Positions 1 through 49,300 of a stretch of 64,000 nucleotides of DNA are shown here, one piece after another; position 1 is the stretch's first letter, and each line of letters starts with the position of its first letter. The position numbers were made by a program, and so were the translations under genes. Below the pieces are notes generated by a model. It saw only the letters and a list, made by a program, of their open reading frames with translations. It did no database searches and was not told where the DNA came from. The stretch is from assembly GCA_963708185.1 (NCBI GenBank), contig OY970195.1, positions 949,482-1,013,481 on the forward strand, read 5' to 3'. Origin of the DNA: Candidatus Peregrinibacteria bacterium (GTDB taxonomy: Bacteria; Patescibacteriota; Gracilibacteria; UBA1369).

Positions 1-142
1 GATGAAAGCCGGCGTGTACGAACTTCCTGACTCCATCGATCAGAAAATCTCCCAGCTCCAGCTCGGGACGATGGGCGTACGCATCGATACGCTTACTCCG
101 AAGCAGAAAAAATATCTTTCGGGATGGCAGGAAGGAACCTAG
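1..142 (+). CDS. ahcY: S-adenosyl-L-homocysteine hydrolase, 3' fragment (start lies upstream of the window)
   Basis: Frame 2 reads ..GVYELPDSIDQKISQLQLGTMGVRIDTLTPKQKKYLSGWQEGT*, with TAG at 140-142. This matches my recollection of the conserved C-terminal tail of short archaeal/Thermotoga-type AdoHcy hydrolases (..LT.EQ..YL.SW..GT). Confidence 0.6.
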   Translation, partial: MKAGVYELPDSIDQKISQLQLGTMGVRIDTLTPKQKKYLSGWQEGT

Positions 143-187
143 CGGGTAGAATGGTGATGCCGACTCAAGGATTTTGACCATGTTCCT

Positions 188-1549
188 ATGAAAATCACAG
201 TATTCGGATGCGGGTACGTTGGCCTGACCACCGCCGTGGGGCTTGCCGAAATGGGCAACACCGTCCTGGGCATCGACGTGGACAAGGAAAAAATCGCGAT
301 GCTCCGCGAAGGTCTCGTTCCTTTTTACGAACCCGGTCTTCAGGAGATGCTGCTGCGGCAGATCAGCGAAGGGCGCCTCGCGTTTTCCACCGACGCGAAA
401 CTCGGCATCGAATCGTCTTCGCTCATTTTCAGTGCGGTGGGCACGCCGCCGTTGAAAGATCATTATGCGGATTTAAGCGCCGTTCTCCATGTGGCGGAAC
501 AGTTCGCTGATTATGCCCGCGGAGAAAAGATTTTCGTCAACAAATCCACCGTTCCCATCGGAACGAGCAGCAAAATCCTCAACATTATCCGTAAAAAGAT
601 GTCTGACAAGGATCGTTTTTTTGTGGTCTCGAACCCTGAATTTTTACGGGAAGGCACGGCGCTCAAAGATTTTTTTGAACCTGACCGCATCGTGGTGGGC
701 ATTGATGAAAAAGACCCCCTGCCGCGCCAAATCATGAAAAAACTTTATCGTCCGATGGTGGAAAAAGGTGTTCCTTTGCTCTTTACCGACATCCGCAGCG
801 CCGAAGTCATCAAATACGCTTCGAACGCTTTTCTGGCGACCCGGCTTTCCTTCATCAACGAGCTCGCCAACTTCTGCGAAAAAGCCGGCGCGGATATCCA
901 GAACGTCCGCAAAGGCGTGGGCATGGACAAGCGCATCGGCACGCACTTCTTCCAACCCGGGATAGGATTCGGCGGATCGTGCCTTCCCAAGGATCTCAAC
1001 GCACTCATCGAGATCGGTAAACTTCATGGATTTGACTTTCAGCTTCTGGAAGCCGCGCAAAGCGTCAACCTCCGGCAACCGCTGCGCATCATCGACAATC
1101 TGCACAAGGTTTTCTCTTCCCTGAAGGGAAAAACGCTCGGCGTCTGGGGAACCTCCTTCAAACCGAATACCGACGACCTCCGTGACGCCCCTTCGCTGGC
1201 CATCCTTCAGCAGCTGGTGCGGGAAGGCGCGAAAATTCAGGTATATGATCCGGTCTCTCTCCCAAAACTCCAGCAGCTTTTCGGGAAAAAACTGACGTAC
1301 TGCAAAAATTATTACAGTGCGCTCAAAGAGTCATCCGCCTTGCTCGTACTTACGGAATGGGACGAGTTCAGAAATCCGGATTTTGCCCGCATGAAGTCAT
1401 TTATGCGCAAATATTACATCTTTGACGGACGTAATATCTTTGACCGGGAAGAGGTTGAAAAACAGGGATTCAGCTATTACGGCATCGGAAGTTTATCTCC
1501 ACAGCGCAAACTGAAATCCAAACGCTCACGCGTCAAATTGGGGTTGTAG
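188..1549 (+). CDS. ugd: UDP-glucose 6-dehydrogenase
   Basis: 453-aa ORF with an ATG start. It has the N-terminal Rossmann motif MKITVFGCGYVGL and the catalytic-Cys region GFGGSCLPKD, and looks like the UDP-glucose/GDP-mannose dehydrogenase family over its full length. The last ~20 codons (SLSPQRKLKSKRSRVKLGL) look like a non-conserved extension. Confidence 0.9.
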   Translation: MKITVFGCGYVGLTTAVGLAEMGNTVLGIDVDKEKIAMLREGLVPFYEPGLQEMLLRQISEGRLAFSTDAKLGIESSSLIFSAVGTPPLKDHYADLSAVLHVAEQFADYARGEKIFVNKSTVPIGTSSKILNIIRKKMSDKDRFFVVSNPEFLREGTALKDFFEPDRIVVGIDEKDPLPRQIMKKLYRPMVEKGVPLLFTDIRSAEVIKYASNAFLATRLSFINELANFCEKAGADIQNVRKGVGMDKRIGTHFFQPGIGFGGSCLPKDLNALIEIGKLHGFDFQLLEAAQSVNLRQPLRIIDNLHKVFSSLKGKTLGVWGTSFKPNTDDLRDAPSLAILQQLVREGAKIQVYDPVSLPKLQQLFGKKLTYCKNYYSALKESSALLVLTEWDEFRNPDFARMKSFMRKYYIFDGRNIFDREEVEKQGFSYYGIGSLSPQRKLKSKRSRVKLGL

Positions 1550-4500
1550 TAAGGATCGCCTTTCTTCATGAGATCTTCGTATTTGTTTTTCATATACTGG
1601 ACCTCTTTCATGTTTACGTCGTAACCGCGACTCAATGATTCGTGGTGGTAGAGCGATGCATAAGCCGTGTAGACGACGAGATATCCTTTCTGACGCAATC
1701 TAAGGCAGAAATCCACGTCGTTAAAAGCCACGGCGAGGTTCTGTTCATCCAACCCCTTCAACTCCTCATAAACGCTTTTTCTGACCATGACGCAGGCGGC
1801 GGTTACCGCACTGTAATTCTTGATAACGTCAACCTGTCCGAAGTATCCGTGGTCATGATTGTTGTGTCTGCTAAAGGCGTGGTTGGCGACACCACCCACA
1901 CCGACGAGAACTCCCGCATGCTGAAGCGTGTTGTTCGGGTAGAGCAGTTTCGCCCCCACTGCACCGACTTCGCTGCGCTGGGCCTGTTCGAGCATGGCTT
2001 CGATCCATTCCGGCGTGATGACTTCGGTATCGTTGTTGAGGAGGATCAAAATTTCCCCTTTGGCGTGCTGTACGGCAAAGTTGTTGATGGCCGCATAGTT
2101 GAACGGCTTATTATAGGGCAAAATCGTGATTCGCGGATCGCTTTCGACGGTTTTAAGATACTCCGCGGTTTCAAAAAGTTCGCTCTGGTTATCCACCAAA
2201 ATGATTTCGTAATTTTTGTAGGTGGTCTTCTGGAAAATACTGGTGAGACAGGTTTCGAGGACGTCTTTTTTATCCTTGAACGGAATAATGATGCTGACGA
2301 GCGGCTCGTTTTTGATTTCGCGTTTTACGCGGTATGACCCCAGCCAGATGCCGTCTTCCACCTGCCCGTCGATGCTGCGGCGCTTCAAGGCGTCCTGCAA
2401 AGCTTTCTTGGCGGAGTCCATGGCATATGGTTTGTACTGAATATTTTCCGCGGTCGATCCGGGAATTTTCCTCCAGTGATAAAGAATTTTCGGGATATGT
2501 CTGATGTTGTTGGTCTTTTCGGTAAAGCGCAGCACGAGGTCGTAATCCTGGCTTCCGTCAAACCCTTCTCGGAACCCTTTGATCTCATTGAGAATTTTCC
2601 TGCGATAGACCCCGAAGTGCGAAACATAGTTGCAGGAAAGGAGAAGATCGGGTGACCAGTCGGGTTTGAAGAAAGGTTCGCACCGGCTGTCGGAAAGATC
2701 GATCTTGTCTTCGTCGCTGTAGATGAGGTCGTATTTCGTTTCCTGAAGAACCTTCACCACTTCGTACAAAGCGTCAGGCGTGAGCTCGTCATCGTTGTCG
2801 AGTAAACCTACATAAGCGCCTTGCGCAAGCCCCAGCGCATCGTTGGACGCTTTGACGATTCCTCCGTTTTTGGAACGGAAGGTCAGGCGGATGCGGCGGT
2901 CTTCCATTGCGTACTTTTCGAGCAGAGGGCGGATGAAGCTTTCGGTGGATGCGTCGTCGCAAATGCAGAGCTCCCAGCGGGTGTAGGTCTGCTGTTTGAC
3001 CGACGCAATGGCTTTGACAAGATACTCTTCGGCGACATTATAGACGGGCATGACGATGCTGATGACCGGCTTGTATTCAAACTTTTCGAGTTCTTCGGTC
3101 ATACTGTTGAGTTCTTTTGGCGTGGGGGTGTTTTTCTGAATATACACCTCATACTGCTCGGGGAGCGCGCGCTCCGGCGTGCCGGATTTCACCCTGCGGT
3201 AGGTTCGTTTGAAAAATTCCGAAGGCCCGAGGGTCGAGAGAACCCGCAGTCCGTTTTTGGCGAGCTTAACCGGTTCGCTCCAAAGTTTCTTCTTCAGGAC
3301 ACCGTACATTTTTACGGCTTTCCAGGCCCTTGAATTGAGGATGCCTTCGAGTGATTTTTTATACTCCGCAAGCGCCACCGCGGTTTCCGCAAGGTCGCTT
3401 TGTTTTGCTTTGAGTTCGGCGCTTTTGCTTTTTAAAAGTTCTTCGTTGCTCCTGATGTATTTCTTGAGCATGACCAGTTCCGAACTGCCGGATTTCAATT
3501 CACCATCCTGCTTCCGGATAAGCGTTTTCGCGTTATTGATCTCGCTGGCAAGCATGGCCTGCTGTTCTTCAAGCGTATTGACGCGGGAAACTTTCTGGTG
3601 ATAGTTGGCCTGGAGCAACGTGAGTGCCTGCTGGCGTTCCTGGAGCAGGCTGTAGAGTTCTTCGTTCTGATCGCGGAGTTCATTTTGCCGCTCCTTGAGT
3701 TCGGCCATCTTGTCACGCGCTGCCAGCATGGCGTCGGCCAGCGTATTGAGCTGTTTCTTGCGGCGATTGAGCATCTTGCGGTCTTCGGTGAAGGCGATCT
3801 TCATGGCATAGCAGAAGGTCTTCACCACGAACTTGTTCATGGCCGCGACGCCTTCGGTGATGGCGTTCCCTTTGAGCGTTTTTTCCTTGGATATGCAGAA
3901 AAAAGTACGATAGGTCGGTTCCTGGTAATTGCCGAGTTCGAGAAGGTTCTTATTGAAATATTCGCTGAAACCGGTGAATTCGTCGGCTCCTTTTTCACCC
4001 TGCTTTGCTCCGATGGCAAATTGCTGGAGCGCCCAGTTGATGATGTTTCCTTCGCCCACCGTCATGTAGGCGAAACCTTTTTCCTTGAGAAAAGCCTCCA
4101 CTTCGTGCGCTTCAGGAAGCCCTTTCTGACGATGCTCGTCGAGAAACGGATGTTTAATGCCGACGTTCTCGAGGAACTGCTGGGCGACCATGTTCTCGAC
4201 ATTTTCCACGAACTCTTTTCTGAAAGGTGCCCCTAAAATAACGTAGTTTTTACTGACGCGGCAAAGTTCATCGAGGACTTTCACGCGGTCTTCTTTGGCA
4301 ATGTGTTCCATCAGGTCCGAAGCCAGGACGACTTCAAAACTGTTGTCGGGGAACGGCAGTTTGCGGGCGTCACCCTGAACATAATTTCCTTTTTCGAGAC
4401 TGGCGTCTTCAGCGTCCCACGGCTTCTGGTCAAGCACAATCAGTTTGTAGTCTTCGTTCAAAAACCACCCGAGTTTCCCTCCGAAACCGCCGACGTCAAG

Positions 4501-4632
4501 AACGTGGGTAGGCTTATTGAGACCGAACGCATCAAGGAGAAAAGCGATGGTTTTGTTGCGGGAGTAAAGGTCGGGAGAAAGTTTCAGGAGAGCGCTCTGC
4601 TCGTTGTTATTTTCCAAGGTGTTTTCAGCCAT
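1477..4632 (-). CDS. Multidomain glycan synthase: SAM-methyltransferase / ~145-aa coiled coil / GT2 / GT2
   Basis: 1051-aa ORF. N-terminal class I methyltransferase motifs are VLDVGGFGGKLG and DNSFEVVLASDLMEHI. A heptad-rich Q/E/K/L segment lies at about 3340-3780. There are two GT2 modules (ISIVMPVYNVAEEYL..CICDDAST and VSIIIPFKDKKD..IILVDNQS..LLNNDTE). The start overlaps the wzt stop by 8 nt. Confidence 0.85.
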   Translation of the reverse strand: MAENTLENNNEQSALLKLSPDLYSRNKTIAFLLDAFGLNKPTHVLDVGGFGGKLGWFLNEDYKLIVLDQKPWDAEDASLEKGNYVQGDARKLPFPDNSFEVVLASDLMEHIAKEDRVKVLDELCRVSKNYVILGAPFRKEFVENVENMVAQQFLENVGIKHPFLDEHRQKGLPEAHEVEAFLKEKGFAYMTVGEGNIINWALQQFAIGAKQGEKGADEFTGFSEYFNKNLLELGNYQEPTYRTFFCISKEKTLKGNAITEGVAAMNKFVVKTFCYAMKIAFTEDRKMLNRRKKQLNTLADAMLAARDKMAELKERQNELRDQNEELYSLLQERQQALTLLQANYHQKVSRVNTLEEQQAMLASEINNAKTLIRKQDGELKSGSSELVMLKKYIRSNEELLKSKSAELKAKQSDLAETAVALAEYKKSLEGILNSRAWKAVKMYGVLKKKLWSEPVKLAKNGLRVLSTLGPSEFFKRTYRRVKSGTPERALPEQYEVYIQKNTPTPKELNSMTEELEKFEYKPVISIVMPVYNVAEEYLVKAIASVKQQTYTRWELCICDDASTESFIRPLLEKYAMEDRRIRLTFRSKNGGIVKASNDALGLAQGAYVGLLDNDDELTPDALYEVVKVLQETKYDLIYSDEDKIDLSDSRCEPFFKPDWSPDLLLSCNYVSHFGVYRRKILNEIKGFREGFDGSQDYDLVLRFTEKTNNIRHIPKILYHWRKIPGSTAENIQYKPYAMDSAKKALQDALKRRSIDGQVEDGIWLGSYRVKREIKNEPLVSIIIPFKDKKDVLETCLTSIFQKTTYKNYEIILVDNQSELFETAEYLKTVESDPRITILPYNKPFNYAAINNFAVQHAKGEILILLNNDTEVITPEWIEAMLEQAQRSEVGAVGAKLLYPNNTLQHAGVLVGVGGVANHAFSRHNNHDHGYFGQVDVIKNYSAVTAACVMVRKSVYEELKGLDEQNLAVAFNDVDFCLRLRQKGYLVVYTAYASLYHHESLSRGYDVNMKEVQYMKNKYEDLMKKGDPYYNPNLTRERLDFSLRCGDKLPMP

Positions 4633-5812
4633 AATGTCGCCATGTAACAGGAAGTTCGATCAGCCCGTATTGATTTTCGCGGTTCCGTTCGACCGAAAAT
4701 GTGTATCTTTTGTCGTGGTAGTCGTAGGGGCGGGTGCATGAAGAGTCAAAACAGGAAACTGTAAAGACATACCGTCCGCCGAGGAGCGTATTTGGATTGA
4801 TGATGCAATCCAGATACCCGTCCCTTTTCACCTCTTCAATCGGATACTCGGAAGTTTTGGTGTTGGGGCCACTAATATGTACACCATCATCCCTATGGAT
4901 GGCAATACCAAAAACCGGCTTTTTTACCGGTTTTTTAATTTTGTAAAAAATGCGCGCGGTGATGGAATCTCCGGTGCGGAAACTTGCCGTCTCCATGCCG
5001 TGATGATCAAAGAAACGGACGTCGCTGATGAAGATGTCGGTATCGTCGTGGTTTTTATGGATTTCCTGGGGCTGGCTTTCGAGGTGAATTCGCCGGTGGT
5101 ATTCATCGATGACCTTTTCGGCTTCCCCTCCTGCGACGACTTTTCCCTTTTCCAACAGGATCGCCTTCGTGCAGAACTGGGTGATGACCGCGGGATTGTG
5201 GCTCACCAATACGAGTGTTTTTCCCTGTTTCTTCCAGTCTTCAAAGACTTCGACGCACTTCTGCTGAAAGGCTTCGTCGCCCACGGCAAAGACTTCGTCG
5301 CAGAGGTAGATATCGGCGTCGGCCTCTTTGGCAATGGCGAACGCCAGCCGCGCCTGCATGCCCGAAGAAAAATTTTTCATCTTGAGATCGAGGAACTTTT
5401 TCACTTCGGCAAAAGCCACGATGTCGTCGAACTTCTGCTGGATCTGTTTTTTGGTGAGGCCAAGGAGCGTGGCGTTGACGCGGATATTCTCGCGCGCGGT
5501 CAGTTCGGGCTGGAAGCCGATGCCGAGTTCCAAAAACGGCGCGATCTCTCCGTTCACTTCCATCTTGCCGCTGTCCGGTTTATAGATTCCCGCCATCACT
5601 TTGAGCAACGTGCTTTTCCCGCTGCCGTTCTTGCCGATGATGCCGATAAAATCTCCCTTCCCCACCATGAGGTTGACGTTTTCAAGGGCCTTGAACTGTT
5701 CGAAGGTCCGTTTTTTCAAGAGTCCCAAAAAATTCTCCTTCAGGGTGTCGCGTTTTTCGTGAGGGAGCACGAATTTTTTTGAGATATCGGTGAGTTCGAG
5801 GGCCTGTTGCAT
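4625..5812 (-). CDS. wzt: Polysaccharide ABC exporter ATPase with C-terminal glycan-binding (Wzt_C-like) domain
   Basis: Walker A GKNGSGKSTLLK, signature FSSGMQARLAFA, Walker B IYLCDEVFAVGD. About 140 extra C-terminal residues (DIFISDVRFFDHHG..RYVFTVSCFD..) are typical of the beta-sandwich cap-recognition domain of O-antigen Wzt proteins. Confidence 0.85.
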   Translation of the reverse strand: MQQALELTDISKKFVLPHEKRDTLKENFLGLLKKRTFEQFKALENVNLMVGKGDFIGIIGKNGSGKSTLLKVMAGIYKPDSGKMEVNGEIAPFLELGIGFQPELTARENIRVNATLLGLTKKQIQQKFDDIVAFAEVKKFLDLKMKNFSSGMQARLAFAIAKEADADIYLCDEVFAVGDEAFQQKCVEVFEDWKKQGKTLVLVSHNPAVITQFCTKAILLEKGKVVAGGEAEKVIDEYHRRIHLESQPQEIHKNHDDTDIFISDVRFFDHHGMETASFRTGDSITARIFYKIKKPVKKPVFGIAIHRDDGVHISGPNTKTSEYPIEEVKRDGYLDCIINPNTLLGGRYVFTVSCFDSSCTRPYDYHDKRYTFSVERNRENQYGLIELPVTWRHYG

Positions 5813-5822
5813 AAGGAAACAC

Positions 5823-6608
5823 TTATATTTTTTCTGCGATCTTCCCGGCTTGGGAATTAAAAATACTATACCCGAAGATAAAAATCACCACGGACATGAG
5901 GAGGATAACAAGGTTGAGTCCCAGATCCGGAATGTGGTGGCGGATGAAGATGTCACGGGAGTATTCGATAATGCGTGCCATCGGGTTCAGGAAAATATAC
6001 CGGTGATATTGGACCGGGACGATGGTAACCGGATAAATGATGGGCGTAAGCCAAAAACCGATCTGAAGAAGGATCTCCCAGATGTGTTGGAGATCGCGAA
6101 AATGAAGGTACAGCGCCGCGAGCAGAAGCGTCACTCCGGTGGCGATCATGTAGAGTTCAACGATGTAGATGATGAAAAAAAACGCCGATGCCTGGATGGC
6201 TACACCCGCAACGAACATGAAGACGAAAAAAATGATGAGATTCAGCAGCAGTGTGACCAGGCTCGAAAGCGTGCTCGCAAAAACGATGATGGAGCGCGGG
6301 AAATAAATCTTGGTGACGAGATCTCTCTTGGCGATAAGGCTGTTCATGCCGATGAGCGTGGCCTCGGAAAAAAAGTTCCACAAAATGATCCCAAGGAGCA
6401 AATAGACCGGATAGTTTTCGATCGGCGACTGCATGAAGACCGAGAACACGAGGTAGATCACGCCAAAGAGCAGCAGAGGTTTGATAAGCGTCCAGAAATA
6501 GCCCAAAAAAGAGTTCTGATAGCGGAGTTTAAATTCGCTTTTGACGAGCTCGACGAGAATGCGCAGATGCTGCTTTTGGAACTTTTTGTGGAGATTTTTG
6601 GACCTCAT
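5823..6608 (-). CDS. wzm: ABC-2 type polysaccharide exporter permease
   Basis: Six predicted TM segments and an ABC-2 N-terminal signature (ELVKSEFKLRYQNSFLGYFWTLIKP). The start is placed at ATG 6608 (MRSKNLHKK); the longer ORF to 6665 has a non-homologous extension. A 10-nt gap separates it from wzt. Confidence 0.8.
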   Translation of the reverse strand: MRSKNLHKKFQKQHLRILVELVKSEFKLRYQNSFLGYFWTLIKPLLLFGVIYLVFSVFMQSPIENYPVYLLLGIILWNFFSEATLIGMNSLIAKRDLVTKIYFPRSIIVFASTLSSLVTLLLNLIIFFVFMFVAGVAIQASAFFFIIYIVELYMIATGVTLLLAALYLHFRDLQHIWEILLQIGFWLTPIIYPVTIVPVQYHRYIFLNPMARIIEYSRDIFIRHHIPDLGLNLVILLMSVVIFIFGYSIFNSQAGKIAEKI

Positions 6609-7221
6609 GCCAGATGAGAAAGAGAGCGCCGATATTCGCGCAGAGGTAGAGCAAGCATAGCGCAATACCGACCCAAATTGGAAGGTTAAATCGGCTTGCG
6701 GAGGCGATTTGTTCTATGGCCTTATACAACGGCACGGTGCTCCTCACTTTCAGCACGGGCTGGCTTTGACTATTCAACCAGTACGTGATGCCGTTCTGCG
6801 GCGTTGCATCCTTGGAACTCAGGAGGAAGCACAGTTTTTGATCGGTAGAAATACCAGAAAAACCTATGGGAAAATAATCGTTATCCTTGACGCTGCCCGA
6901 AGGAAACTCATTTCGTGCAATGATGTTTTTGGTATTGTCGCGCAGGGTAAAAATCTCGACCTGATTGGTGTTGGTATTTTGGCGATCGTAGGTGGCCAGA
7001 AGGATATCGATGCTCGTGACGTTTTCAAATTTACCGTCGATGCACTGTTCCAGGGGAGTTTGGGTGGTTATCGGGTCGGCGGGGCGAAGCTCTCCGTCAT
7101 TCGGCTGGACGTAGAGGGTGTAGGGAACAGGCAGGAACGTAAAAACCAACGCGGCGACCATGACGCTGAAAAGCGAGTATTTAAGCCAGTTCCCGGATTT
7201 TTCAGTGTGTTTTTTGAGCAT
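6529..7221 (-). CDS. Bitopic membrane protein of unknown function (N- and C-terminal TM helices, beta-rich outside domain)
   Basis: 230-aa ORF. Its ATG overlaps the GT-C stop in a TGATG arrangement. TM helices are YSLFSVMVAALVFTFLPV and IWVGIALCLLYLCANIGALFLIW. The basic tail overlaps the wzm start by ~80 nt. I recognise no family. Confidence 0.55.
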   Translation of the reverse strand: MLKKHTEKSGNWLKYSLFSVMVAALVFTFLPVPYTLYVQPNDGELRPADPITTQTPLEQCIDGKFENVTSIDILLATYDRQNTNTNQVEIFTLRDNTKNIIARNEFPSGSVKDNDYFPIGFSGISTDQKLCFLLSSKDATPQNGITYWLNSQSQPVLKVRSTVPLYKAIEQIASASRFNLPIWVGIALCLLYLCANIGALFLIWHEVQKSPQKVPKAASAHSRRARQKRI

Positions 7222-8660
7222 CAGTAAAATTCAGGAATAATACGGAACATGATGGTGACAAAACCGCTGAAAACAAAAAACGTCATGATGATTTTCATCG
7301 CGGTGGAGAGATTTTTTTGTGAAACAAGATGCGCCAGTCCGCGGACAAAAAAATACATGAACGGTATCAGCGCCGAAAAAAGATATCTTCCCTGCAGGGC
7401 TCCTAAAAATCCACGTTCGCGGAAGATCTGGAAGAGTTCGTAACTCAAAGCCGCGGACACAAAAACAATAGGGAGGAGCATGGTCCATCCTTTCCAGCCC
7501 AGGATTTTTTTCCAAAGATGTTTGCGGTTCTTTTTTTGGAACGATTCGGCGGCGAATTTTGTAAAACCCGCTGCGGAAGCCAATGTCAGCAATCCCACCA
7601 CCGCATACTGCCAGGTGAAGAGACGGAAAAAGAACTGACCGAAAGCACCCCAGATATTTTTGTAGTATTCCCCCAGGAATCCCGCGCCGAAGAAAAATCC
7701 CCACACCGTAGCGTTTGGAAGCGCCAGGACGCCGCTGGCTTCGGGGAATATTTTGACGAGGTTCGGGTAGGCGGCCAGCAGCGCAGGATTTTTTGCCGCG
7801 TACGCACCGATATCCGGAAAGAGCATATGATACAACGCGATATTGCGGACGTACCACCAGGCGGCGATGGCAAACGCCGAGCCGAAAATAATGAGCTGAT
7901 GCCGTACAAAATGCGCGAAATCCTTCCGCGTTTTGCGCATGCGCAGATGTTTGACGATTTCGATGGTGAAGATGGAAACGTACAACGGCAATGCCGTGAC
8001 CTTGGTCAAGGCCAGTAATCCCAGGACGATGCCGGTCTGCAAACTCAGGCGGTGCGTGCGTTCGTCAAAATTCAACACCGAAAGATAAATGAGGATGCTG
8101 GAAAGCATGAAGACGAGATTATCGTTGTTCATCAACGCGCTGATGGAAGAGAACATGGGCATAAAGGCAATGCCCACGAGAACGGTTTTCGTGACGATGC
8201 CTCCGGGGTTCGAGGGTCCGTCCGGCAAAAGCTGGTCGAGCGTTTTTTTGGCGTAGAACAGGGTGACACTGGCCATGATGATCGAGACGAGGCGCAAGAT
8301 AAAAATGCACAGCAAAGGATCATCCTGCGGCAGCAAAGCATACAAAGGCTCAAGACCAAGGTAGTAGAGCGGCGGGTGCTGGGCGATCCAGTTCAGGGCC
8401 AGCGAGCCCTTGTAGTAATCGATTTCCTTGGCGGGATCCACGGGGCCGATGGCCTGGACGCGTTCGGAAAGGACGGTTTTCCCCAGGACTGGGAACCGGT
8501 GTTCGTAAAAAAGGCTTTCCACGTAGCCGTAATGTGCGATCTCATCCGGAGCCTGCCAGGGCGGCGTGAGGTATGACCACAGCAGTTCCTTGCAAAAAAA
8601 TACCGCTATGAGCAGCCAAATCCATGGAAGTTTCCTGAGTTTTTGAAAAAAAGCGGTCAT
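7221..8660 (-). CDS. GT-C fold (ArnT/PMT/DUF2142-like) polytopic membrane glycosyltransferase
   Basis: 479-aa ORF with ~11 hydrophobic segments. The first outside loop carries the acidic motif PPWQAPDEIAHYGY, typical of lipid-carrier-dependent GT-C enzymes. It is the first gene of the glycan operon. Confidence 0.6.
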   Translation of the reverse strand: MTAFFQKLRKLPWIWLLIAVFFCKELLWSYLTPPWQAPDEIAHYGYVESLFYEHRFPVLGKTVLSERVQAIGPVDPAKEIDYYKGSLALNWIAQHPPLYYLGLEPLYALLPQDDPLLCIFILRLVSIIMASVTLFYAKKTLDQLLPDGPSNPGGIVTKTVLVGIAFMPMFSSISALMNNDNLVFMLSSILIYLSVLNFDERTHRLSLQTGIVLGLLALTKVTALPLYVSIFTIEIVKHLRMRKTRKDFAHFVRHQLIIFGSAFAIAAWWYVRNIALYHMLFPDIGAYAAKNPALLAAYPNLVKIFPEASGVLALPNATVWGFFFGAGFLGEYYKNIWGAFGQFFFRLFTWQYAVVGLLTLASAAGFTKFAAESFQKKNRKHLWKKILGWKGWTMLLPIVFVSAALSYELFQIFRERGFLGALQGRYLFSALIPFMYFFVRGLAHLVSQKNLSTAMKIIMTFFVFSGFVTIMFRIIPEFY

Positions 8661-8700
8661 GAAGCGGCGGAAATATCTGCATCATTCTGCCATATTTTCG

Positions 8701-9150
8701 CTAGAGCTTCAAATCCTTGAGCAGTTTGATGTTTCCTTCCTTTTTGGTCTGTTCGTAATAACGCCGGTCCGCAGTAATAAAATCTGTGTTATATGCTTTG
8801 GCCAGAGCGTGGTAGGCAGCATCGTAGAAAGAGACTTTCGGGTATTGATTTTTGATTTTCGCAGCTATTCCCATAAGGTCGGTATCGAGCGGAATAATAC
8901 TTACCTGTCTTTCGGTAAAAGCAAGAAATGCATTTTCAGCTGTTTGCGTTTCTAATCCTCTTCCAACGATATTCATGAACTCATACCTGAAAATATCCGG
9001 AATCAGGATCGACAGTTCATAATTATCTTTGAGATAATTCATTTTTTTTACCTTTTCTTCGCCATCCTCTTTCAGTATGGGTTTCAGAATAACGGATGTA
9101 TCCACGACAAGAGTTTTGATATTTTTCATGATTTTCAATAAAAGATTCAT
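8701..9150 (-). CDS. vapC: PIN-domain toxin (type II TA)
   Basis: 149 aa. PIN acidic residues occur in LVVDTSVILKP.., ..IPDIFRYEF.. and FYDAAYHALA..DFITADRRY. Its ATG directly abuts the TAA of the upstream antitoxin gene. The segment is visibly AT-richer than its flanks. Confidence 0.8.
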   Translation of the reverse strand: MNLLLKIMKNIKTLVVDTSVILKPILKEDGEEKVKKMNYLKDNYELSILIPDIFRYEFMNIVGRGLETQTAENAFLAFTERQVSIIPLDTDLMGIAAKIKNQYPKVSFYDAAYHALAKAYNTDFITADRRYYEQTKKEGNIKLLKDLKL

Positions 9151-9408
9151 TTAATGGGACTTCCTGTCTTCCCTTACAAGCTCTACCGCGGTCTTCCCGC
9201 TTTTCCGTTTATATTTATTGGCAAGATTGTCCCAAAACTCATGGATTTCTTCCATTGTTACGACTTCGTGCGATTGAGCGCTGAGATTTTTGGTGATTGC
9301 TTCAGCAACAAACCTGCTTCTTTTGTTTTTTGGAACGGAGATTTCAAGTTTTTTCATGACAATTGCAGGAATTGAAAAAGTGACCCGTTTTACATTTCTT
9401 AAAGCCAT
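9151..9408 (-). CDS. vapB: Ribbon-helix-helix antitoxin
   Basis: 85 aa. The N-terminal RHH-like beta strand and helices are VTFSIPAIVMKKLEISVPKNKRSRFVAEAITKNL. It sits immediately upstream of the PIN gene. Confidence 0.7.
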   Translation of the reverse strand: MALRNVKRVTFSIPAIVMKKLEISVPKNKRSRFVAEAITKNLSAQSHEVVTMEEIHEFWDNLANKYKRKSGKTAVELVREDRKSH

Positions 9409-9418
9409 CTTGTTTAAA

Positions 9419-9446
9419 GTTATGTAACTATTGTTATGTAACTATT
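9419..9446 (-). promoter_or_regulatory. Candidate VapB operator: two tandem copies of a 14-nt unit
   Basis: GTTATGTAACTATT is repeated head-to-tail at 9419-9432 and 9433-9446, 11 nt upstream of the vapB ATG. Each unit contains the inverted half-sites GTTA-N2-TAAC. The repeats overlap the predicted -10 box. Confidence 0.5.
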
Positions 9447-9472
9447 TTAAATCTTTTGATTTTGAAAAGCAA
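9444..9472 (-). promoter_or_regulatory. Sigma70-type promoter of vapBC
   Basis: The minus strand reads TTGCTT (9472-9467), a 17-nt spacer, then TAAAAT (9449-9444). Confidence 0.5.
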
Positions 9473-9495
9473 ACGTTTTCCTTCATCATTGTTCC

Positions 9496-10200
9496 ATGAA
9501 ACTTGCCGTCTGCATTCCGGCGTATAACGAGGAAAAAACCATAGGAGAGGTCATCAAGGCCGTTCCTCATACGATTGACGGTGTTCGTTCCGTGAAAATT
9601 TTCGTGGTGGACGATGGATCGTCGGACAATACCGCCGAAAGAGCCCAGGAAGCCAGCAATGCCGTGGAGGTCGTACGCATCCACCCGAACAAAGGTCTGG
9701 CCAACGCTTTTGTCACGGGTATCCGCACAGCTTTGGAATGGGGCGCGGACCTTATGGTGAATATTGACGCCGACGGCCAGTACCGCGCCGAAGAGATCCC
9801 GGCTTTGATCGCTCCACTTCTTCACGATGAAGCAGACATGGTCATCGGCGACCGCCAGGTTCGTACGTTGCGCTTTATGCCGGTGAGTAAAAAATACGGA
9901 AATATCGTCGGCAGCTGGTTTTTACGAAGGCTGACCGGATCAAAAGTGCGTGACGCTTCGAGCGGGTTCCGGGCATATTCACGCAAGACCGCTGAAACCA
10001 TCCGGATTCAATCCAGCCATACCTACACCCATGAGAACCTCATTCAGGCACATTACCAGCACCTGCGCATCGCCCAGGTCCCGGTGACGTTCATTTCGAG
10101 GACAGACGGCACCTCTTCGCGGCTCATCCGAGGGGTTTTAAAGCATATTTTCAAGAGCTTACAGGGCATTTTTGCGGCCTGGCGACACTGGAGAGGGTGA
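9496..10200 (+). CDS. GT2 glycosyltransferase, polyprenol-phosphate sugar synthase-like (DPM1/GtrB/ArnC type)
   Basis: 234 aa with MKLAVCIPAYNEEKTIGEVI, VVDDGSSDNT and NIDADGQY motifs. It lacks the C-terminal TM helices seen in GtrB. Confidence 0.8.
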   Translation: MKLAVCIPAYNEEKTIGEVIKAVPHTIDGVRSVKIFVVDDGSSDNTAERAQEASNAVEVVRIHPNKGLANAFVTGIRTALEWGADLMVNIDADGQYRAEEIPALIAPLLHDEADMVIGDRQVRTLRFMPVSKKYGNIVGSWFLRRLTGSKVRDASSGFRAYSRKTAETIRIQSSHTYTHENLIQAHYQHLRIAQVPVTFISRTDGTSSRLIRGVLKHIFKSLQGIFAAWRHWRG

Positions 10201-10247
10201 TACGTTCTAAAACGGCTGAAAGCCCGTCTTCGTTGACGGTATTTTAT

Positions 10248-10766
10248 TTATATTGTCTTAAACCCAATTTTTCTTTTTGGTTGTTCTTCAGCGGCGAGCA
10301 ACTGTTTGATGACTTTGAAGATAATCTTGAAGCGATTGTCGTATTTTTGCTCTATTTCCTCTATCTTTTCACGCAGTTCTTTGTTTGTAGCGAGCATTTC
10401 TCGAAGTTTGGTAAAAGTACGCATGATTTGAATATTCACCTGGATTGCCCGTTCGCTGTGAAGGACACTTGACAGCATCGCGACGCCTTGTTCGGTAAAA
10501 ACTAATGATTTTTTCCTTATCCCTTTCTTTTTTGCGCTGGATATCACAATTTGTGATATCCAAATTTGCATTTCCTTCTCGGTTAATTGAAACATGAAAT
10601 CTGCGGGAAAACGCTTTATATTTCTCCTAACAGCCTGGTTCAAAACCCTTGTTTCCACGCCATAAAGAATCGCCAAATCTTTATCAAAAATAACTTTCTT
10701 ACCGCGTAGAAAAAATATTTTTGCCTGGATGATTTCGTCGTGAACGATCTGTTGTGATGATGCCAT
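10248..10766 (-). CDS. ORF6N (KilA-N-related) DNA-binding domain protein
   Basis: 172 aa. FLRGKKVIFDKDLAILYGVETRVLNQAVRRNIKRFPADFMFQLTEKE is the ORF6N signature, followed by a C-terminal coiled coil. AT-richer than the flanks. Confidence 0.75.
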   Translation of the reverse strand: MASSQQIVHDEIIQAKIFFLRGKKVIFDKDLAILYGVETRVLNQAVRRNIKRFPADFMFQLTEKEMQIWISQIVISSAKKKGIRKKSLVFTEQGVAMLSSVLHSERAIQVNIQIMRTFTKLREMLATNKELREKIEEIEQKYDNRFKIIFKVIKQLLAAEEQPKRKIGFKTI

Positions 10767-10851
10767 GGCGTTATTTTAGTGTCGTGGGATGAACGAAAGA
10801 TAAACTTTTCTTAAATTAGCATTGATGGCTTGGCCTAATACATATACAAAA

Positions 10852-10877
10852 GGCCCCCGCCTTTGAGGGCGGGGGCC
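10852..10877 (-). terminator. Rho-independent terminator downstream of the S-layer gene (structurally bidirectional)
   Basis: A 10-bp GC stem (GGCCCCCGCC at 10852-10861 pairing with GGCGGGGGCC at 10868-10877) with a 6-nt loop. It is flanked by AAAA on one side and TTTGTTT on the other. Confidence 0.7.
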
Positions 10878-10925
10878 TTTGTTTGCATGTGAGACTTGCG
10901 TCTTTTATGCGACCGTCAGGTCAAA

Positions 10926-13900
10926 CTATGTTGTGACCTTAGCGGTGTAACCCTGCATAGCCGTCTGGAAGATATACGCGCCAGCACCGAGAATGTCTTG
11001 CTGGACGTTATCGCTCCATTCGAGAGACAGAGGGTCAGAGACGACGCTTGCGGATACCTGGTTACCACCAGCACTTGGAACCATTGTTGAAGTGTCGCAG
11101 ATAGCCTGGAGTTCAACAGTTGTTCCGTTAGCAATGGTGAGACCGTTCGTGTCGAATTCGAATGCTACGAATTCCGTAGCACCACCAGCTGTTGCAACGG
11201 TTGCGAGCGTCTGCGTACCACCAGTGACTTTGTCAAGGCGGCAAGTAGAAGCGTTCAATGCAACGTTACCGGAAAGTTTCATCACGAGCTGGTTGCCAGA
11301 GTCAACCGACAAACCTGCAATTGTAGCAGCTGTGTTGGAAACGTTTCCGTTTGCAGCGAATTTGACCTGGTCGCCGACAGCCGTAACGTTCATGTCAAGC
11401 AACACAGTGTTGCTGTTCGGACTGACTGCAGGAGCGCCAACCGGTACAAGATTTGCGACCTGAGGGATCGAACGGAAGAGCTTGCTGAGGTTGCCATGGA
11501 GCGGGAAGCGTGCGCTACCAGCAGCTGGCAAGAATGCAGCACCTGTTCCAAGAACCGGAACAACAGTATCGGCTGCGTTGTCGCAGACGGTAGTAGAACC
11601 GCCGAGGGTCGGATCAACGCAGAGGCTGTATCCGGTACCAGCGGCATTGCTGTACATATCGCCCTGGACTACGTCTGTACCTGCAGGGGATGCGACGGCA
11701 ATGGTTGAACGTGTCACCGTAGCCCCGATGTTATGGGAAGCAACGACCGAGTTGGCGAAGCCTCTGATGACGTTGGCAGCCGGGAGAACCGCCGGGTCGG
11801 TGCTTACGTTCGCACCATTGTAGAACATGACTTCATTGTCAACATTGAAGACGTCACCCGCAGTGAAGGTAAGAGTTGAAGGGTTGGCGAATTCAATATT
11901 TTCAGTGGAGTGACCAGCCGTCAAGGTTGTGGTCATCGCCACGTTGAGTGCGCTGGTCTGGACGCCGGTGGTAGCCGGGTCGAGATCACCTGCGTATTTT
12001 GGCGCGATGTTTTCACCTGCTCCGCTGGTCACCTTGGTGAGGTTCAAGAGAGCCAAACCAATGTTGGAACCGGAAAGCGGCTGGGTCGTACCGTCGGTGT
12101 TCACCGTGCCGGTCGTAGCCAGTGCGCAGAGTGTGTAGGTTGCGTTCGAAGTCACAGCCTCGTTGAGGTCGGTGATCTTCACGACAGCGCCTGTACCAAC
12201 CGGGGTCGGAACATAACCGCTGACGCTACCAACCTGTGTACCACCGCCGCAAAGATTAGCATTTGGGTTCTTGTAGAGTTTGACATTGCTGATGGTTGAA
12301 CCAGATGTGCTTTCTACAGCGAACTGCATGTCTTTGAGCGTTGGGTTTTCATTCACGGAAGTGAATGTCCAGCGGCCGACTTCAACCTGCTGAGCACCTG
12401 CCAAAGCGGCAGAGTTCGAGCTGGAAGATGTGGCAACCGTACCGCTACCGCTACCAGCGACAGTCATGACGACTGAACCGGCACCGAGACCGCCGTTTTG
12501 AGCGTTGGTCACGATTGCGGAAGAAGCAACGGTCTGACCGTTCTGATCAATTGCCGTCACGTTCGTGTTGGAAGTGAGAGCAAACTTGATGTCGTTACCG
12601 GTAACACCGGTTGGAGCGAACGGAGCGCTGTTGCTGATATGACCCTTCAAGGTCAGGTTGAGTGTCTGACCCTTTGGAACAACCAGGTTGAGGTTGTTGA
12701 ACACAACGGTACCGTCGGCAGCGTTGATGTTCTTGAAGTCAGAGATCTTTGTTGTGCCATCGTAGAGGGCAACGCTGTTGTCCACGATGTTGTTTGCCTG
12801 AACGCCGTTTTCAGCGCCGGCAACGAACGTACCATCCTGGTTGTTATCAACGTAACCCGTCAACGTGATGCTCTTCAGGGTGTTGTCCAAAGACGAACCA
12901 GATGTAAGAGCGAGACCGACCAATGCAGCATCGTTTGTACCGCGGGTGTAGGTCTGAGTTGTCGGAGTTGTAGCAAGGTTGATGGTAAGACCGGAAGCGC
13001 TGACATTGAAGAGGTTACCGGCAATATCTGCGTTCGGGGTGATGGAGTTGGCACCCAACTGGTCGCCGTTCACGTCGCGAACCGCGTCGGACTGGCCTAC
13101 CAGGTTCAAGAGAGTACATTTGAGCTGATCGCCATCCATGGCTGCGTTGGACGCAACATTGACGGTGACGGCAGCGTTGATGCTTTCACCCGAGTGGATG
13201 GTTGCATCACCGGAAAGGATAACATCCTGAGATGAATCGCTTCCTGCAGTGCTCAATTCGTTGGATCCGAGCAGTGTTCCGCCCAGAGTACCGTCAGAAT
13301 TGATTTCTGCGAGTTTGATGAGGGTGTAGTTTGCAGTACCTGCGGTGTTATCAATGAGACCATTGAGTGGACCTACGGCACTTGTGATAGCGAGGTTAAC
13401 TTTCCAGTCTTTGATGTCAACGTCATCGCCAGCCTGGTTCGTAATGGTCAGGTCGAGACAGTGAGCTGTCTGCTGGCCGATTGCGATATCGCCTGCGGAA
13501 GGACCGTTGAAGGCAATGTTGAAGGCTGAACCCTTGACGGTTACATCAGAGAAGTTTGCAGGAGCTGAACCGTCGAATCCGGCAGTGTTGACCTGTTCGC
13601 CGAAGCCGAAGGTGCTACCAACCATGAGAAGGTCGGTGGTTTCATCAAGATAGGTCTTGATGTCATCTCCGTTGCGACCCTTTACGTCAGCAGTGACGAA
13701 GAAGATCTTTCTCTGGCCGCGTCCGATCTTGTATGGAGCGGTTGGAACGAAGGTTGCAAGGCTGTTGGTCGTAATGCTGTCAACAGTTGCAATTGGAGTT
13801 GTAGCGTTGTCCTCAGAGTACAGCTTGAGGTTGCTCAAGTCTGTCGGGCGGATGGAACCGCGAACATAGAGGGCAATGCGCTGAAGGTTTGCATCTTCAC

Positions 13901-24985: not shown

Positions 24986-25090
24986 TGAAAATCTGGTGAA
25001 GATACCCGAAGTGCAATACAATTTCCGTGAATTCGTTATATATATACGATTGTTTGCCGCAAGTTACAAGACCCATTTACTACTACTTTC

Positions 25091-27601: not shown

Positions 27602-27671
27602 ATTGTTGTAATACTTTTTCTGGAGAAATTGTTCTTAAGAGCGGCAAGATTCCGGGAGCCGTGATGACGAT

Positions 27672-27698: not shown

Positions 27699-27736
27699 AC
27701 CACTACAATTCTCTTTAGCGTTCCGCCCCAAGAACC

Positions 27737-49216: not shown

Positions 49217-49242
49217 ACTTGATAAAATTAAAGAAGTATTGC

Positions 49243-49272: not shown

Positions 49273-49300
49273 GGTTTTCCGAGTGAAAAACTAATGACAG

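Follow-up and report, generated by a model that had tools for sequence, protein, structure and literature searches.

A methyltransferase, coiled-coil and polymerase fusion in a putative surface-glycan locus of Peribacteria

The 64,000-nucleotide stretch of DNA analysed here (the window) comes from a member of the Peribacteria, within the Candidate Phyla Radiation (CPR). It probably encodes the core that polymerises and exports the chain in a lipid-linked, ABC-transporter-dependent glycan pathway of the S-layer-glycan/O-antigen type. The closest relatives of the window genes are found in Peribacteria MAGs. To our knowledge, proof of the terminator-ruler-polymerase design comes from no more than a few Enterobacteriaceae and one Geobacillus, and what is known of CPR cell envelopes derives almost entirely from cryo-EM images and gene lists. 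The locus would extend this design to the CPR and provides a testable candidate for the way in which such tiny cells assemble a surface glycan and set its size beside an S-layer gene.

In the pathway that we infer from sequence, with its capping, ruler action, donor sugars, decoration step and acceptor, a polyprenyl-phosphate primer would be made by a priming transferase (Bac_transf) and an adaptor GT2, encoded in relatives beyond the left edge of the window. The primer would be extended on the cytoplasmic face of the membrane by the two GT-A modules of a fusion protein that is probably held there by residues 433-482. A SAM-methyltransferase at the N-terminus of the same protein, at the far end of a coil of ~22 nm, would cap the non-reducing end when this came within reach, and growth would then stop. 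The capped end would be recognised by the C-terminal domain of Wzt, and the chain exported by Wzm/Wzt. Outside the membrane, a GT-C enzyme may add side-chain sugars from a donor made by a small GT2, perhaps assisted by a protein with two transmembrane (TM) helices, and the chain would be passed on, most likely to the adjacent 1494-aa SLH protein, by a Wzy_C(-TPR) ligase-like enzyme that relatives encode.

Organisation of the locus

Five tightly coupled minus-strand genes encode the GT-C enzyme, the 2-TM protein, Wzm, Wzt with a Wzt_C domain and the 1051-aa fusion (Table 1). The ORFs lie where the initial annotation had placed them, and the overlaps and short gaps from which it had read a tight operon were verified on the sequence, including the TGATG shared by the GT-C stop and the next start and the 8-nt overlap, ATGGCTGA, of the 3′-end of wzt with the fusion-gene start. 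Although an ORF of 5823..6665 was listed for wzm, comparison with relatives, including the ortholog in locus L082, places the real start at the ATG at 6608, and the 2-TM gene therefore overlaps wzm by 80 nt. The gap between wzm and wzt is 10 nt. The UDP-glucose 6-dehydrogenase (UGDH) gene is convergent with the fusion gene and overlaps it by 73 nt. Its product scores 444 bits as an NDP-sugar dehydrogenase and 470 bits as TuaD in NCBIfam, the latter below the equivalog cut-off, and we infer that UDP-GlcA or a derivative is used somewhere in the pathway. The window opens in a frame-2 ORF fragment, a 46-aa C-terminal stretch, where three relatives (L001, L082 and L083) carry ahcY, and by position and synteny it is probably the end of ahcY.

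Table 1. Features of the glycan locus and its immediate neighbours in the window
Feature	Coordinates	Strand	Evidence
ahcY 3′-end (S-adenosylhomocysteine hydrolase)	2..142	+	position and synteny
UDP-glucose 6-dehydrogenase (UGDH), TuaD-like	188..1549	+	Pfam, NCBIfam
1051-aa soluble fusion: methyltransferase, coiled coil, basic amphipathic helices, GT2, GT2 (WsaE/O7-ORF6/WbbB type)	1477..4632	-	Pfam, colinearity
GT2 (GT-A) module 2 (aa ~777-1000)	1633..2304	-	Glyco_tranf_2_3, Glyco_tranf_2_2
GT2 (GT-A) module 1 (aa ~520-730)	2443..3075	-	Glycos_transf_2 aa 525-683
Basic amphipathic helical segment (aa 433-482), polymerase end of coil	3187..3336	-	charge, hydrophobic moment
Coiled coil (aa 283-432, ~150 residues, ~22 nm if continuous)	3337..3786	-	heptad statistics, AF2
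Class I SAM-dependent methyltransferase domain (aa ~12-255), presumed chain terminator	3868..4599	-	Pfam, invariant motifs, AF2
wzt, ABC ATPase with C-terminal carbohydrate-binding domain	4625..5812	-	Pfam, Aquifex Wzt match
wzm, ABC-2 permease, 261 aa from ATG at 6608	5823..6608	-	ABC2_membrane
230-aa protein, two TM helices around external beta-sandwich	6529..7221	-	TM prediction, AF2
GT-C fold glycosyltransferase, PMT_2/ArnT-PMT superfamily	7221..8660	-	PMT_2
Small GT2, polyprenyl-phosphate hexose synthase-like	9496..10200	+	Glycos_transf_2, NCBIfam similarity
1494-aa secreted protein, three N-terminal SLH domains; candidate S-layer protein	10926..15410	-	SLH profile

Wzm matches ABC2_membrane (Pfam, E 3.5e-17), and Wzt has an ABC_tran domain followed, at aa 260-386 (4655..5035), by the C-terminal beta-domain noted initially, which matches Wzt_C with E 2.4e-24 and 86 bits against a cut-off of 30. 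Residues 6-390 align with Wzt of Aquifex aeolicus (8dku/7k2t; E 4e-66) over its full length, including the carbohydrate-binding domain. Wzt_C is absent from the Wzt of more distant Peribacteria clusters that retain the methyltransferase and coil, and the family can therefore do without recognition of the cap by Wzt.

Modules of the fusion protein and their known counterparts

The order terminator, coil, polymerase that had been proposed for the fusion is borne out, with the methyltransferase first and the two GT2 modules after the heptad-rich coil. Three outcomes had been named beforehand as refuting the initial reading, namely a central segment that is no coiled coil, an N-terminal domain without SAM-binding residues and a wzt extension unlike Wzt_C, and none of them was observed. 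No TM segment was found in the protein, and 22 clusters of homologs with this architecture were found. The N-terminus matches Methyltransf_11 (aa 50-129) and Methyltransf_25 (aa 44-128), both over the Pfam cut-offs, and is modelled by AF2, for the most part at pLDDT 80-93, as a Rossmann-like sheet of 7 strands. The SAM-binding motifs, on which the initial reading of this domain had been staked beforehand, are intact, with D46, G48, G49, D68, A89 and D106 invariant in 20 homologs. At E<=1e-10, the family of this methyltransferase domain counts 1230 representatives.

The coiled coil, first estimated at ~145 residues (about 3340..3780) and ~20 nm, is slightly longer on both counts. It contains 0 Pro and 3 Gly, with strong heptads in a single register (z = 10.5 for the 3.5-residue periodicity and z = 6.3 for a single a/d register; 1000 shuffles). 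AF2 predicts helices at 270-322 and 327-432, with a confidence across the coil of just 50-73. Its sequence is poorly conserved, yet its length varies in heptad units, blocks of 7, 14 or 21 residues, between two invariant anchors, F281 and S434, which are separated by 147, 154, 175, 189, 196 or 203 residues in close homologs. Such variation is as expected for a ruler or spacer, and this natural, heptad-stepped series offers comparative support for the ruler model. Alternatively, the methyltransferase might modify internal or several residues, with the coil merely oligomerising or scaffolding the protein and chain length set elsewhere, for example by export kinetics. The linkers of more distant homologs, far shorter at 59-118 aa, and the retention of methyltransferase and coil where Wzt has no cap-binding domain are consistent with this alternative. 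We nevertheless judge it quite improbable, given the presence of Wzt_C on the Wzt of the window, the spacer-like variation of the coil and a domain order shared with WbbB and O7 ORF6, whose action as rulers has been proven by experiment (PMC11231755).

The polymerase end of the coil would lie at the membrane. Residues 433-482, between the coil and the GT2 modules, form the most basic and most amphipathic stretch of the protein, with a net charge of +12 over 50 aa and a hydrophobic moment of up to 0.65; S434, Y443 and K447 are the same in all of 20 homologs, and W437 and K438 in nearly all. This charge and amphipathicity identify the segment as a candidate membrane-association site. In GT2 module 1, the best Glycos_transf_2 stretch (aa 525-683) has an E-value of 7e-50 and D559, D560, D612, D614, D615 and D640-D642 are invariant in the 20 homologs; in module 2, which matches Glyco_tranf_2_3 at aa 779-996 and also Glyco_tranf_2_2, N866, N867, D868, D972 and D974 are invariant, and DXD-type motifs are among these conserved residues. 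Module 1 matches the chondroitin polymerase K4CP at E 1.6e-33, and Foldseek aligns the whole GT-A tandem with the bifunctional polymerases K4CP, PmHS2 and LARGE1. As modelled, the two modules thus resemble tandem-GT-A polymerases.

The fusion had been presented as if novel, but the arrangement already exists in WsaE (PMC2943079) and in Klebsiella O7 ORF6 and O12 WbbB (PMC11231755); the window protein adds to these known terminator-coil-polymerase designs, with no new mechanism. WsaE, the S-layer glycan methyl-rhamnosyltransferase of Geobacillus stearothermophilus NRS 2004/3a, is likewise a single soluble protein with an N-terminal methyltransferase followed by two GT2 modules (PMC2943079). Sequence comparison was made with a proxy for the authentic WsaE, the WsaE-type methyltransferase-GT2-GT2 protein of a Lysinibacillus S-layer-glycan cluster (L081), with which aa 15-1034 of the window fusion are colinear at 33% identity (E 5e-166). 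The L081 cluster contains Wzy_C, wzm, wzt with Wzt_C, the fusion, WsaF, a nucleotidyltransferase of RmlA type and three genes presumed to be rmlC, rmlB and rmlD; its genes and their order are those of the published G. stearothermophilus slg cluster (PMC2943079). As in the window, the WsaE gene start overlaps the end of wzt and Wzm and a Wzt with a C-terminal domain are encoded upstream; the Wzy_C transferase and TPR element of the WsaE cluster may have counterparts in relatives. In contrast to WsaE, the window protein is from a CPR bacterium rather than a Firmicute, has a canonical SAM motif I (DVGGFGG) and a longer coil (154 versus 118 residues between the anchors, by comparison with the proxy), and its locus has UGDH, SDR and SAM-cycle genes instead of WsaF and rml nearby, and adds the GT-C enzyme, 2-TM protein and small GT2.

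Compared by description, Klebsiella pneumoniae O7 ORF6 also has a methyltransferase, coiled coil and two C-terminal GT2 modules and works with Wzm/Wzt, but this 1414-aa protein has an extra kinase domain and CBM between methyltransferase and coil and adds methyl-phosphate (PMC11231755). As the methyltransferase of the window fusion ends at ~aa 255 and the coil starts at ~aa 283, there is no room for a kinase. WbbB of K. pneumoniae O12/Raoultella terrigena combines terminator, coiled-coil ruler and two-module polymerase in one polypeptide in the same N-to-C order, whereas its terminator is a beta-Kdo glycosyltransferase and its product the LPS O antigen of a diderm host (PMC11231755). The comparison of domain order with WbbB and WbdD, suggested at the outset, thus held for WbbB; identity as a WbdD-type kinase-methyltransferase was rejected, with no kinase domain in Pfam, no match to a WbdD chain or structure at E<=5, and the polymerase fused. 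In E. coli O9a and Klebsiella O3, WbdD has a kinase, and the terminator and the WbdA polymerase are on separate proteins. The likeness to WbdD/WbdA would lie in a methyl-containing cap, a coiled-coil ruler, attachment to the membrane where the coil meets the polymerase, and a Wzt whose C-terminal domain binds the cap.

The neighbourhood in relatives and the nature of the polymer

Past the position of the left edge, relatives that are 50-80% identical carry ahcY, an SDR, a GT2, a priming phosphoglycosyltransferase (Bac_transf) and a Wzy_C(-TPR) ligase-like gene, and most also have metK. The Wzy_C gene, of ~650 aa in L001, L082 and L083, shares an operon with the priming transferase; faint TPR matches are present in L001 and L082, with none in L083, and the proteins are 20% identical to the Wzy_C protein of L081. 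By synteny, a priming transferase and Wzy_C would be encoded beyond the left edge here too. Neither the window nor the 10 kb around the cluster in the Peribacteria relatives contains rml or WsaF genes; rml genes are nearby in 18 of 83 loci carrying the tandem GT2. Both rfbABCD and S-layer proteins have been reported from Peribacteria (PMC4736985). By analogy, dTDP-Rha is plausible as a donor sugar.

The 1494-aa protein encoded next to the cluster has a signal peptide, three SLH stretches (E 9e-30) and a Thr/Ser/Ala/Gly-rich body. A protein of this type (~1500 aa) adjoins the cluster in every 50-80% relative, with an ortholog in five loci (L001, L004, L005, L082 and L083), and it is the most likely acceptor of the glycan. 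The initial annotation had instead suggested a secondary cell-wall polymer (SCWP), linked to peptidoglycan and anchoring the SLH proteins rather than linked to them. The window does carry SLH genes, both beside the cluster and at other places, and UGDH, with the top NCBIfam similarities to TuaD and TuaG, recalls teichuronic acid synthesis. Gram-positive bacteria also have wall polysaccharides made by ABC-transporter-dependent routes, such as teichoic acids and streptococcal rhamnose polysaccharides. The TuaD and TuaG scores are, however, under the equivalog cut-offs, and neither a CsaB pyruvyltransferase nor an LCP ligase domain was found in the large window ORFs or, in relatives, among the genes called over 10 kb. 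Relatives have instead the Wzy_C(-TPR) ligase-like gene, which shares an operon with the primer transferase, an arrangement that mirrors WsaB/WsaA of S-layer glycosylation clusters (PMC2943079). We consider an SCWP unlikely; the Wzy_C(-TPR) and priming genes together with the SLH neighbour in relatives favour an S-layer-protein glycan as the more probable polymer.

The GT-C enzyme and its partners

The GT-C enzyme scores 30.6 bits against PMT_2 (Pfam gathering cut-off 26.1) and has an acidic motif in its first external loop, where the sequence PPWQAPDE after TM1 is conserved in five orthologs; a sequence search of the PDB gave no match. The product of the next gene had been labelled bitopic, but has two TM helices with an external, all-beta sandwich of ~130 aa between them (AF2 model, pLDDT 78, strands at 31-164). 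It has no match in Pfam or NCBIfam, and weakly resembles CBM6/36/4 (Foldseek, E ~1e-3, TM ~0.5). A word-indexed search found only 14 clusters of homologs, and those of known provenance, P0041 and P0042, are on Peribacteria-cluster contigs. It is lineage-specific and possibly a carbohydrate-binding partner of the GT-C enzyme. A role as a polysaccharide co-polymerase (Wzz/PCP) was rejected, the external domain being all-beta and not an alpha-helical coiled coil. It is a tentative reading, and one we hold to be somewhat doubtful as a whole, that Peribacteria have an S-layer protein bearing a methyl-capped, coil-sized glycan, with heptad indels as an evolutionary dial of its length and the 2-TM beta-sandwich serving the GT-C enzyme as a separate subunit that binds carbohydrate. 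If so, no S-layer glycosylation system would have been defined in the CPR before this one.

The small GT2 matches Glycos_transf_2 (Pfam), has no TM segment and is similar to AglJ, PpgS and a dolichyl-P-hexose transferase in NCBIfam, all far below the equivalog cut-offs. In relatives too, its gene adjoins and is divergent from that of the GT-C enzyme, for which it may make a lipid-linked donor. The pair, with the 2-TM protein, could instead O-glycosylate the SLH protein directly with single sugars, leaving the polymer undecorated, in the manner of Ppm1/Pmt, the protein O-mannosylation system of actinobacteria. Membership of the GT-C enzyme in PMT_2 and its loop-1 Asp-Glu motif, typical of PMT-type enzymes, are in keeping with this, as are the resemblance of the GT2 to AglJ and dolichyl/polyprenyl-phosphate hexose synthases and the position of both genes between the SLH and transporter genes. 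The GT-C/GT2 pair is also missing from some relatives that retain the polymer genes and is therefore a separable module. Against direct O-glycosylation, which we regard as rather unlikely, the TGATG coupling of the GT-C and 2-TM genes and the overlap of the latter with wzm argue for a shared pathway, and decoration by GT-C enzymes is well documented for ABC-exported polymers (PMC11127046).

Decoration of the chain outside the membrane, as first proposed for the GT-C enzyme and small GT2, fits the three-component scheme (GtrA/GtrB/GT-C; Citrobacter GT136), in which a polyprenyl-phosphate sugar synthase-like GT2 and a GT-C enzyme are encoded beside an ABC-transporter-dependent cluster (PMC11127046). 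The scheme also has a flippase, and no GtrA, SMR or MATE gene for a lipid-linked donor was found at 6.5-10.9 kb of the window. The GT-C enzyme of Citrobacter GT136 comes with a carbohydrate-binding beta-domain (PMC11127046), whereas the beta-sandwich of the window is in the separate 2-TM protein. In the interval searched for a flippase, a 91-aa ORF (10197..10472) with no Pfam match encodes one hydrophobic segment and overlaps an ORF6N gene. The GT-C gene is immediately preceded by a pair of PIN-toxin genes.

A probable operon for an ABC-exported glycan

The predicted terminator-ruler-polymerase operon is a real, well-formed feature of the window. ORF listing, translation and the junctions read from the sequence bear out the initial annotation, which had described five coupled minus-strand genes that encode, consecutively, a GT-C enzyme, a membrane protein (2-TM protein), Wzm, Wzt and a methyltransferase (MT)-coiled coil-GT2-GT2 fusion, and Pfam profiles support the domain assignments. 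The mechanism proposed also appears right in outline, with the functional steps all inferred from homology and gene context.

Features of the window, with positions and assignments
Feature	Position	Strand	Assignment
Window-edge fragment	2..142		putative ahcY end, by position in relatives
ugd	188..1549	+	UDP-glucose 6-dehydrogenase (UGDH)
MT-coil-GT2-GT2 fusion	1477..4632	-	1051 aa; Methyltransf_11/25 and GT2-family matches (Pfam)
wzt	4625..5812	-	395 aa; ABC_tran and Wzt_C (aa 260-386, E 2.4e-24; Pfam)
wzm	ORF 5823..6665, start ATG at 6608	-	ABC2_membrane (Pfam)
2-TM membrane protein	6529..7221	-	230 aa; ORF listing and translation
GT-C	7221..8660	-	479 aa; PMT_2 just over gathering score (Pfam)
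PIN-domain toxin gene	8701..9150
85-aa ORF	9151..9408		no family match
Small GT2	9496..10200		similar to polyprenyl/dolichyl-phosphate hexose synthases, scores below equivalog cut-offs
91-aa ORF	10197..10472		no family match
ORF6N-domain gene	10248..10766
SLH protein	10926..15410	-	1494 aa; signal peptide, three N-terminal SLH domains, Thr/Ser/Ala/Gly-rich body
Split glucose-6-phosphate dehydrogenase	23536..25021	-	two overlapping ORFs
First G6PD ORF	24062..25021	-	G6PD_N and first 43 positions of G6PD_C
Second G6PD ORF	23536..24339	-	remainder of G6PD_C
PBP1C-like protein to alpha-2-macroglobulin	25091..34712		PBP1C-like: Transgly, Transpeptidase, BiPBP_C
ECF-type sigma factor	27737..28288
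Bacterial alpha-2-macroglobulin (A2M)	28281..34712		2143 aa
Four large ORFs	43531..53131	-	627, 664, 670 and 408 aa; no Pfam match

The end of the GT-C gene and the start of the 2-TM gene share the sequence TGATG, wzm and wzt are separated by 10 nt and the start of the fusion gene overlaps the end of wzt by 8 nt (ATGGCTGA). Ortholog comparison places the wzm start at the ATG at 6608, and the 2-TM gene therefore extends 80 nt into wzm (6529..6608). This overlap is real, as the basic C-terminal tail that it encodes, HSRRARQKRI in the window (consensus HSRRTRQKR), recurs in about 11 of the 14 homologs. The fusion gene and ugd are convergent and overlap by 73 nt (1477..1549), an overlap identical in two loci of Peribacteria-type relatives (L001 and L082) and only 4 nt long in a third (L083). 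Promoter and terminator scans over positions 1..11000 returned no more sites than scans of shuffled sequences and so are uninformative on the operon boundaries.

The C-terminal extension of Wzt, noted initially as a beta-domain, is a Wzt_C domain; residues 6-390 also align, carbohydrate-binding domain included, with Wzt of Aquifex aeolicus (8dku, 7k2t; E 4e-66). In related loci with ~50% identity (L083/L008, L006 and L007), the MT, coil and both GT2 modules are kept, Wzt has about 248 aa with no Wzt_C, and there is no gene for a GT-C, a 2-TM protein or a small GT2. The L004 locus has the GT-C set and no Wzt_C. As MT-coil clusters without Wzt_C exist, the cap-binding domain is not strictly coupled to the methyltransferase.

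The fusion protein and its coiled coil

The N-terminal domain of the fusion (aa 44-129, Methyltransf_11/25) has the SAM-binding residues expected of a methyltransferase. D46, G48 and G49 of the motif DVGGFGG do not vary among 20 homologs, nor do D68, A89 and D106, and AlphaFold2 models the domain as a Rossmann-like sheet of seven strands (pLDDT mostly 80-93). A PDB search with this domain (E<=5) returned generic class I methyltransferases only, with WbdD and CgnL absent. The domain family comprises 1230 representatives at E<=1e-10, which are free-standing proteins of 310-380 aa or parts of fusions. Both GT modules (aa 525-683, Glycos_transf_2; aa 779-998, Glyco_tranf_2_3 and Glyco_trans_2_3) retain DXD-type acidic motifs in the 20-homolog alignment, and the top PDB matches of the fusion model in Foldseek are the tandem GT-A polymerases K4CP, PmHS2 and LARGE1.

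The region between these domains is predicted, as initially proposed, to be a coiled coil. Residues 283-432 are free of proline and have a 3.5-residue hydrophobic periodicity (z = 10.5) with a single a/d register (z = 6.3; 1000 shuffles), behaviour seen in all 19 aligned homologs, and AlphaFold2 predicts helices at 270-322, 327-432, 435-468 and 470-482. At 0.15 nm per residue, the predicted coil would span about 22 nm. No TM segment was found in the fusion. The 50 residues that follow the coil (aa 433-482) have both the highest net charge (+12, 3.3 SD above the mean) and the highest amphipathic moment of the protein, with S434, Y443 and K447 invariant and W437 and K438 nearly so, and are a candidate membrane-association site. 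[quoted passage not shown] In proven rulers, the polymerase end is at the membrane and the terminator is distal (PMC11231755).

Coil length was measured in the close family (28 sequences) by counting residues from F281 to S434, two anchors that are invariant. In 21 of the 28, this count is 147, 154, 175, 189, 196 or 203, all multiples of 7; the other lengths are 151, 158, 162, 176 and 192. Multiples of 7 thus make up 6 of 11 length classes, versus the 1 in 7 expected by chance, although, as many of the sequences are akin to one another, these counts are not independent events. Indels appear in the alignment as blocks of 7, 14 or 21 residues, a ruler-like pattern of change, and the window fusion differs from its relatives at 78% identity by one clean block of 7. 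The catalytic domains are well conserved and the coil sequence poorly, and in more distant homologs the linker is 59-118 residues long. The DNA of the coil region contains no tandem repeats, so the heptads did not arise by recent duplication.

A scan of species-representative genomes identified the closest relatives (78%) in Candidatus Peregrinibacteria/Peribacteria MAGs, one a 1.49 Mb chromosome; the contig that carries the window is 1.44 Mb. At 45-55% identity, the tandem GT2 pair is widespread, in cyanobacteria, Desulfobacterota, Saccharibacteria, Chloroflexi and archaea, and it occurs alone or joined to other N-terminal modules. In three loci of Bathyarchaeia and Methanophagales MAGs (L030, L049, L053), homologs span the MT to the second GT2 (query residues ~16-1042), with 28-41% identity over MT and coil and 53-55% over the GT modules; the coil has 203 residues in L049, and L030 and L053 have just 27-61 residues in its place. 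As these archaeal homologs cover most of its length, the fusion family crosses domains of life.

The gene order in a Lysinibacillus MAG (L081) is Wzy_C, wzm, wzt with Wzt_C, a gene that overlaps wzt at its start and encodes a 990-aa MT-GT2-GT2 protein, a WsaF-type gene (WsaF_N and WsaF_C in Pfam), an RmlA-type nucleotidyltransferase and three more genes, assigned as rmlC, rmlB and rmlD by size and order, the RmlA-type gene alone of the four being Pfam-scanned. This content and order are those of the published G. stearothermophilus slg cluster, which encodes WsaE. Residues 15-1034 of the window fusion are colinear with the L081 protein (33% identity, E 5e-166; 42% in the GT half versus 28% in the MT-coil half). 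Klebsiella O7 ORF6 has a methyltransferase-kinase, CBM, coiled coil and two GT2 modules, and with O12 WbbB is an experimentally characterised single-polypeptide terminator-ruler-polymerase (PMC11231755). The window fusion has the same order of methyltransferase/terminator, coil and two GT modules. It belongs with WsaE, O7 ORF6 and WbbB, so the arrangement is already known, and not new as the initial annotation had implied. A literature search for WsaE together with a coiled coil found nothing relevant. What is added here is a CPR host, a wider cluster whose content suggests S-layer glycosylation, and a coil that varies naturally in heptad steps.

Gene context, likely acceptor and sugars

Within its first 142 bases, the window contains the open C-terminal end (46 aa) of a reading frame, at the place that ahcY, the gene for S-adenosylhomocysteine hydrolase, occupies in relatives. 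In L001, L082 and L083 (50-78% identity), the order past ugd is ahcY, (metK), SDR, GT2 (about 350-376 aa), a Bac_transf phosphoglycosyltransferase (212 aa) and Wzy_C (about 650 aa), and the ahcY-to-Wzy_C core is conserved in a presence/absence table of ten Peregrinibacteria/Gracilibacteria-type loci. Across Peribacteria relatives, the glycan cluster contains genes of the SAM cycle, ahcY and in most cases metK, beside a methyltransferase-containing polymerase, which may reflect a functional link (SAM supply, SAH removal) or coincidence.

The product was suggested initially to be the secondary cell-wall polymer (SCWP) that anchors SLH proteins. Neither CsaB nor LCP domains turned up in the scanned window ORFs or in the called genes within 10 kb in relatives. 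In relatives, Wzy_C is encoded after, or in overlap with, the primer transferase, an arrangement that resembles the Geobacillus cluster (PMC2943079) with its TPR protein WsaA and with WsaB, for which an oligosaccharyl:protein transferase role has been proposed; the Wzy_C proteins have faint TPR matches only, in two of the three loci. An SLH protein of 1466-1635 aa flanks the cluster in L001, L004, L005, L082 and L083, and in L083 its gene is directly upstream of wzm on the same strand. With Wzy_C beside a primer transferase, a flanking SLH gene and no CsaB or LCP in these loci, we consider a ligase-dependent glycan, with the S-layer protein its most likely acceptor, a better explanation than a SCWP. 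Literature searches found nothing specific on CPR S-layer glycosylation.

For the polymer sugars, the candidates from homology and gene content are rhamnose and a uronic acid or derivative. Homology of the fusion to the WsaE type points to rhamnose, as do rml genes found within 10 kb of the tandem GT2 in 18 of the 83 loci that carry it, and rfbABCD have been reported in Peribacteria (PMC4736985). The conserved TuaD-like UGDH with a non-RmlB SDR, and the strong K4CP match of GT module 1, point to a uronic acid or derivative somewhere in the pathway; K4CP and TuaG similarity with the adjacent UGDH would suggest a glucuronosyltransferase. As an RmlB ortholog, the SDR of relatives was rejected (129 bits vs a cut-off of 365).

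The GT-C enzyme has a PPWQAPDE motif after TM1, retained in five orthologs; GT-C enzymes typically carry an acidic motif in loop 1. A PDB sequence search with the GT-C found no match. In relatives, the small GT2 gene adjoins the GT-C gene divergently. A word-indexed search placed the 2-TM protein in 14 clusters only, each at least 46% identical to the window copy. Its model (pLDDT 78) is a TM helix, a beta-sandwich and a TM helix, with weak similarity to CBM6/36/4 modules (E ~1e-3, TM ~0.5; Foldseek). Some GT-C enzymes carry their own CBMs, which bind the undecorated backbone (PMC11127046), and it is a reasonable, if weak, conjecture by analogy that the 2-TM protein is a detached CBM-like partner of the GT-C. 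A Wzz/PCP role was rejected on account of its all-beta external domain. No flippase for this module was found at 6.5-10.9 kb; the 91-aa ORF, considered for that role, was rejected, as it has no family match and overlaps the well-supported ORF6N gene. Some relatives that retain the polymer genes lack the GT-C, the 2-TM protein and the small GT2, which so form a separable module. Such absence would fit direct protein O-glycosylation by the module, an unlikely alternative to decoration of the polymer.

Other genes in the window

The PIN-domain gene abuts the upstream 85-aa ORF, and the two look like a VapBC-type pair. This pair and the ORF6N gene lie among the GT-C, small GT2 and SLH genes at places that are empty in L001 and L082, and the drop in GC there, to 0.39-0.44, suggests inserted mobile DNA. 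The split glucose-6-phosphate dehydrogenase reflects a frameshift, either in a pseudogene or from an assembly error. The four large ORFs with no Pfam match adjoin a 785-aa protein with Peptidase_M23 and one SLH domain. The genes for the PBP1C-like protein, the sigma factor and the A2M adjoin; PBP1C with A2M is a known pairing, notable here for a genome of about 1.4 Mb.
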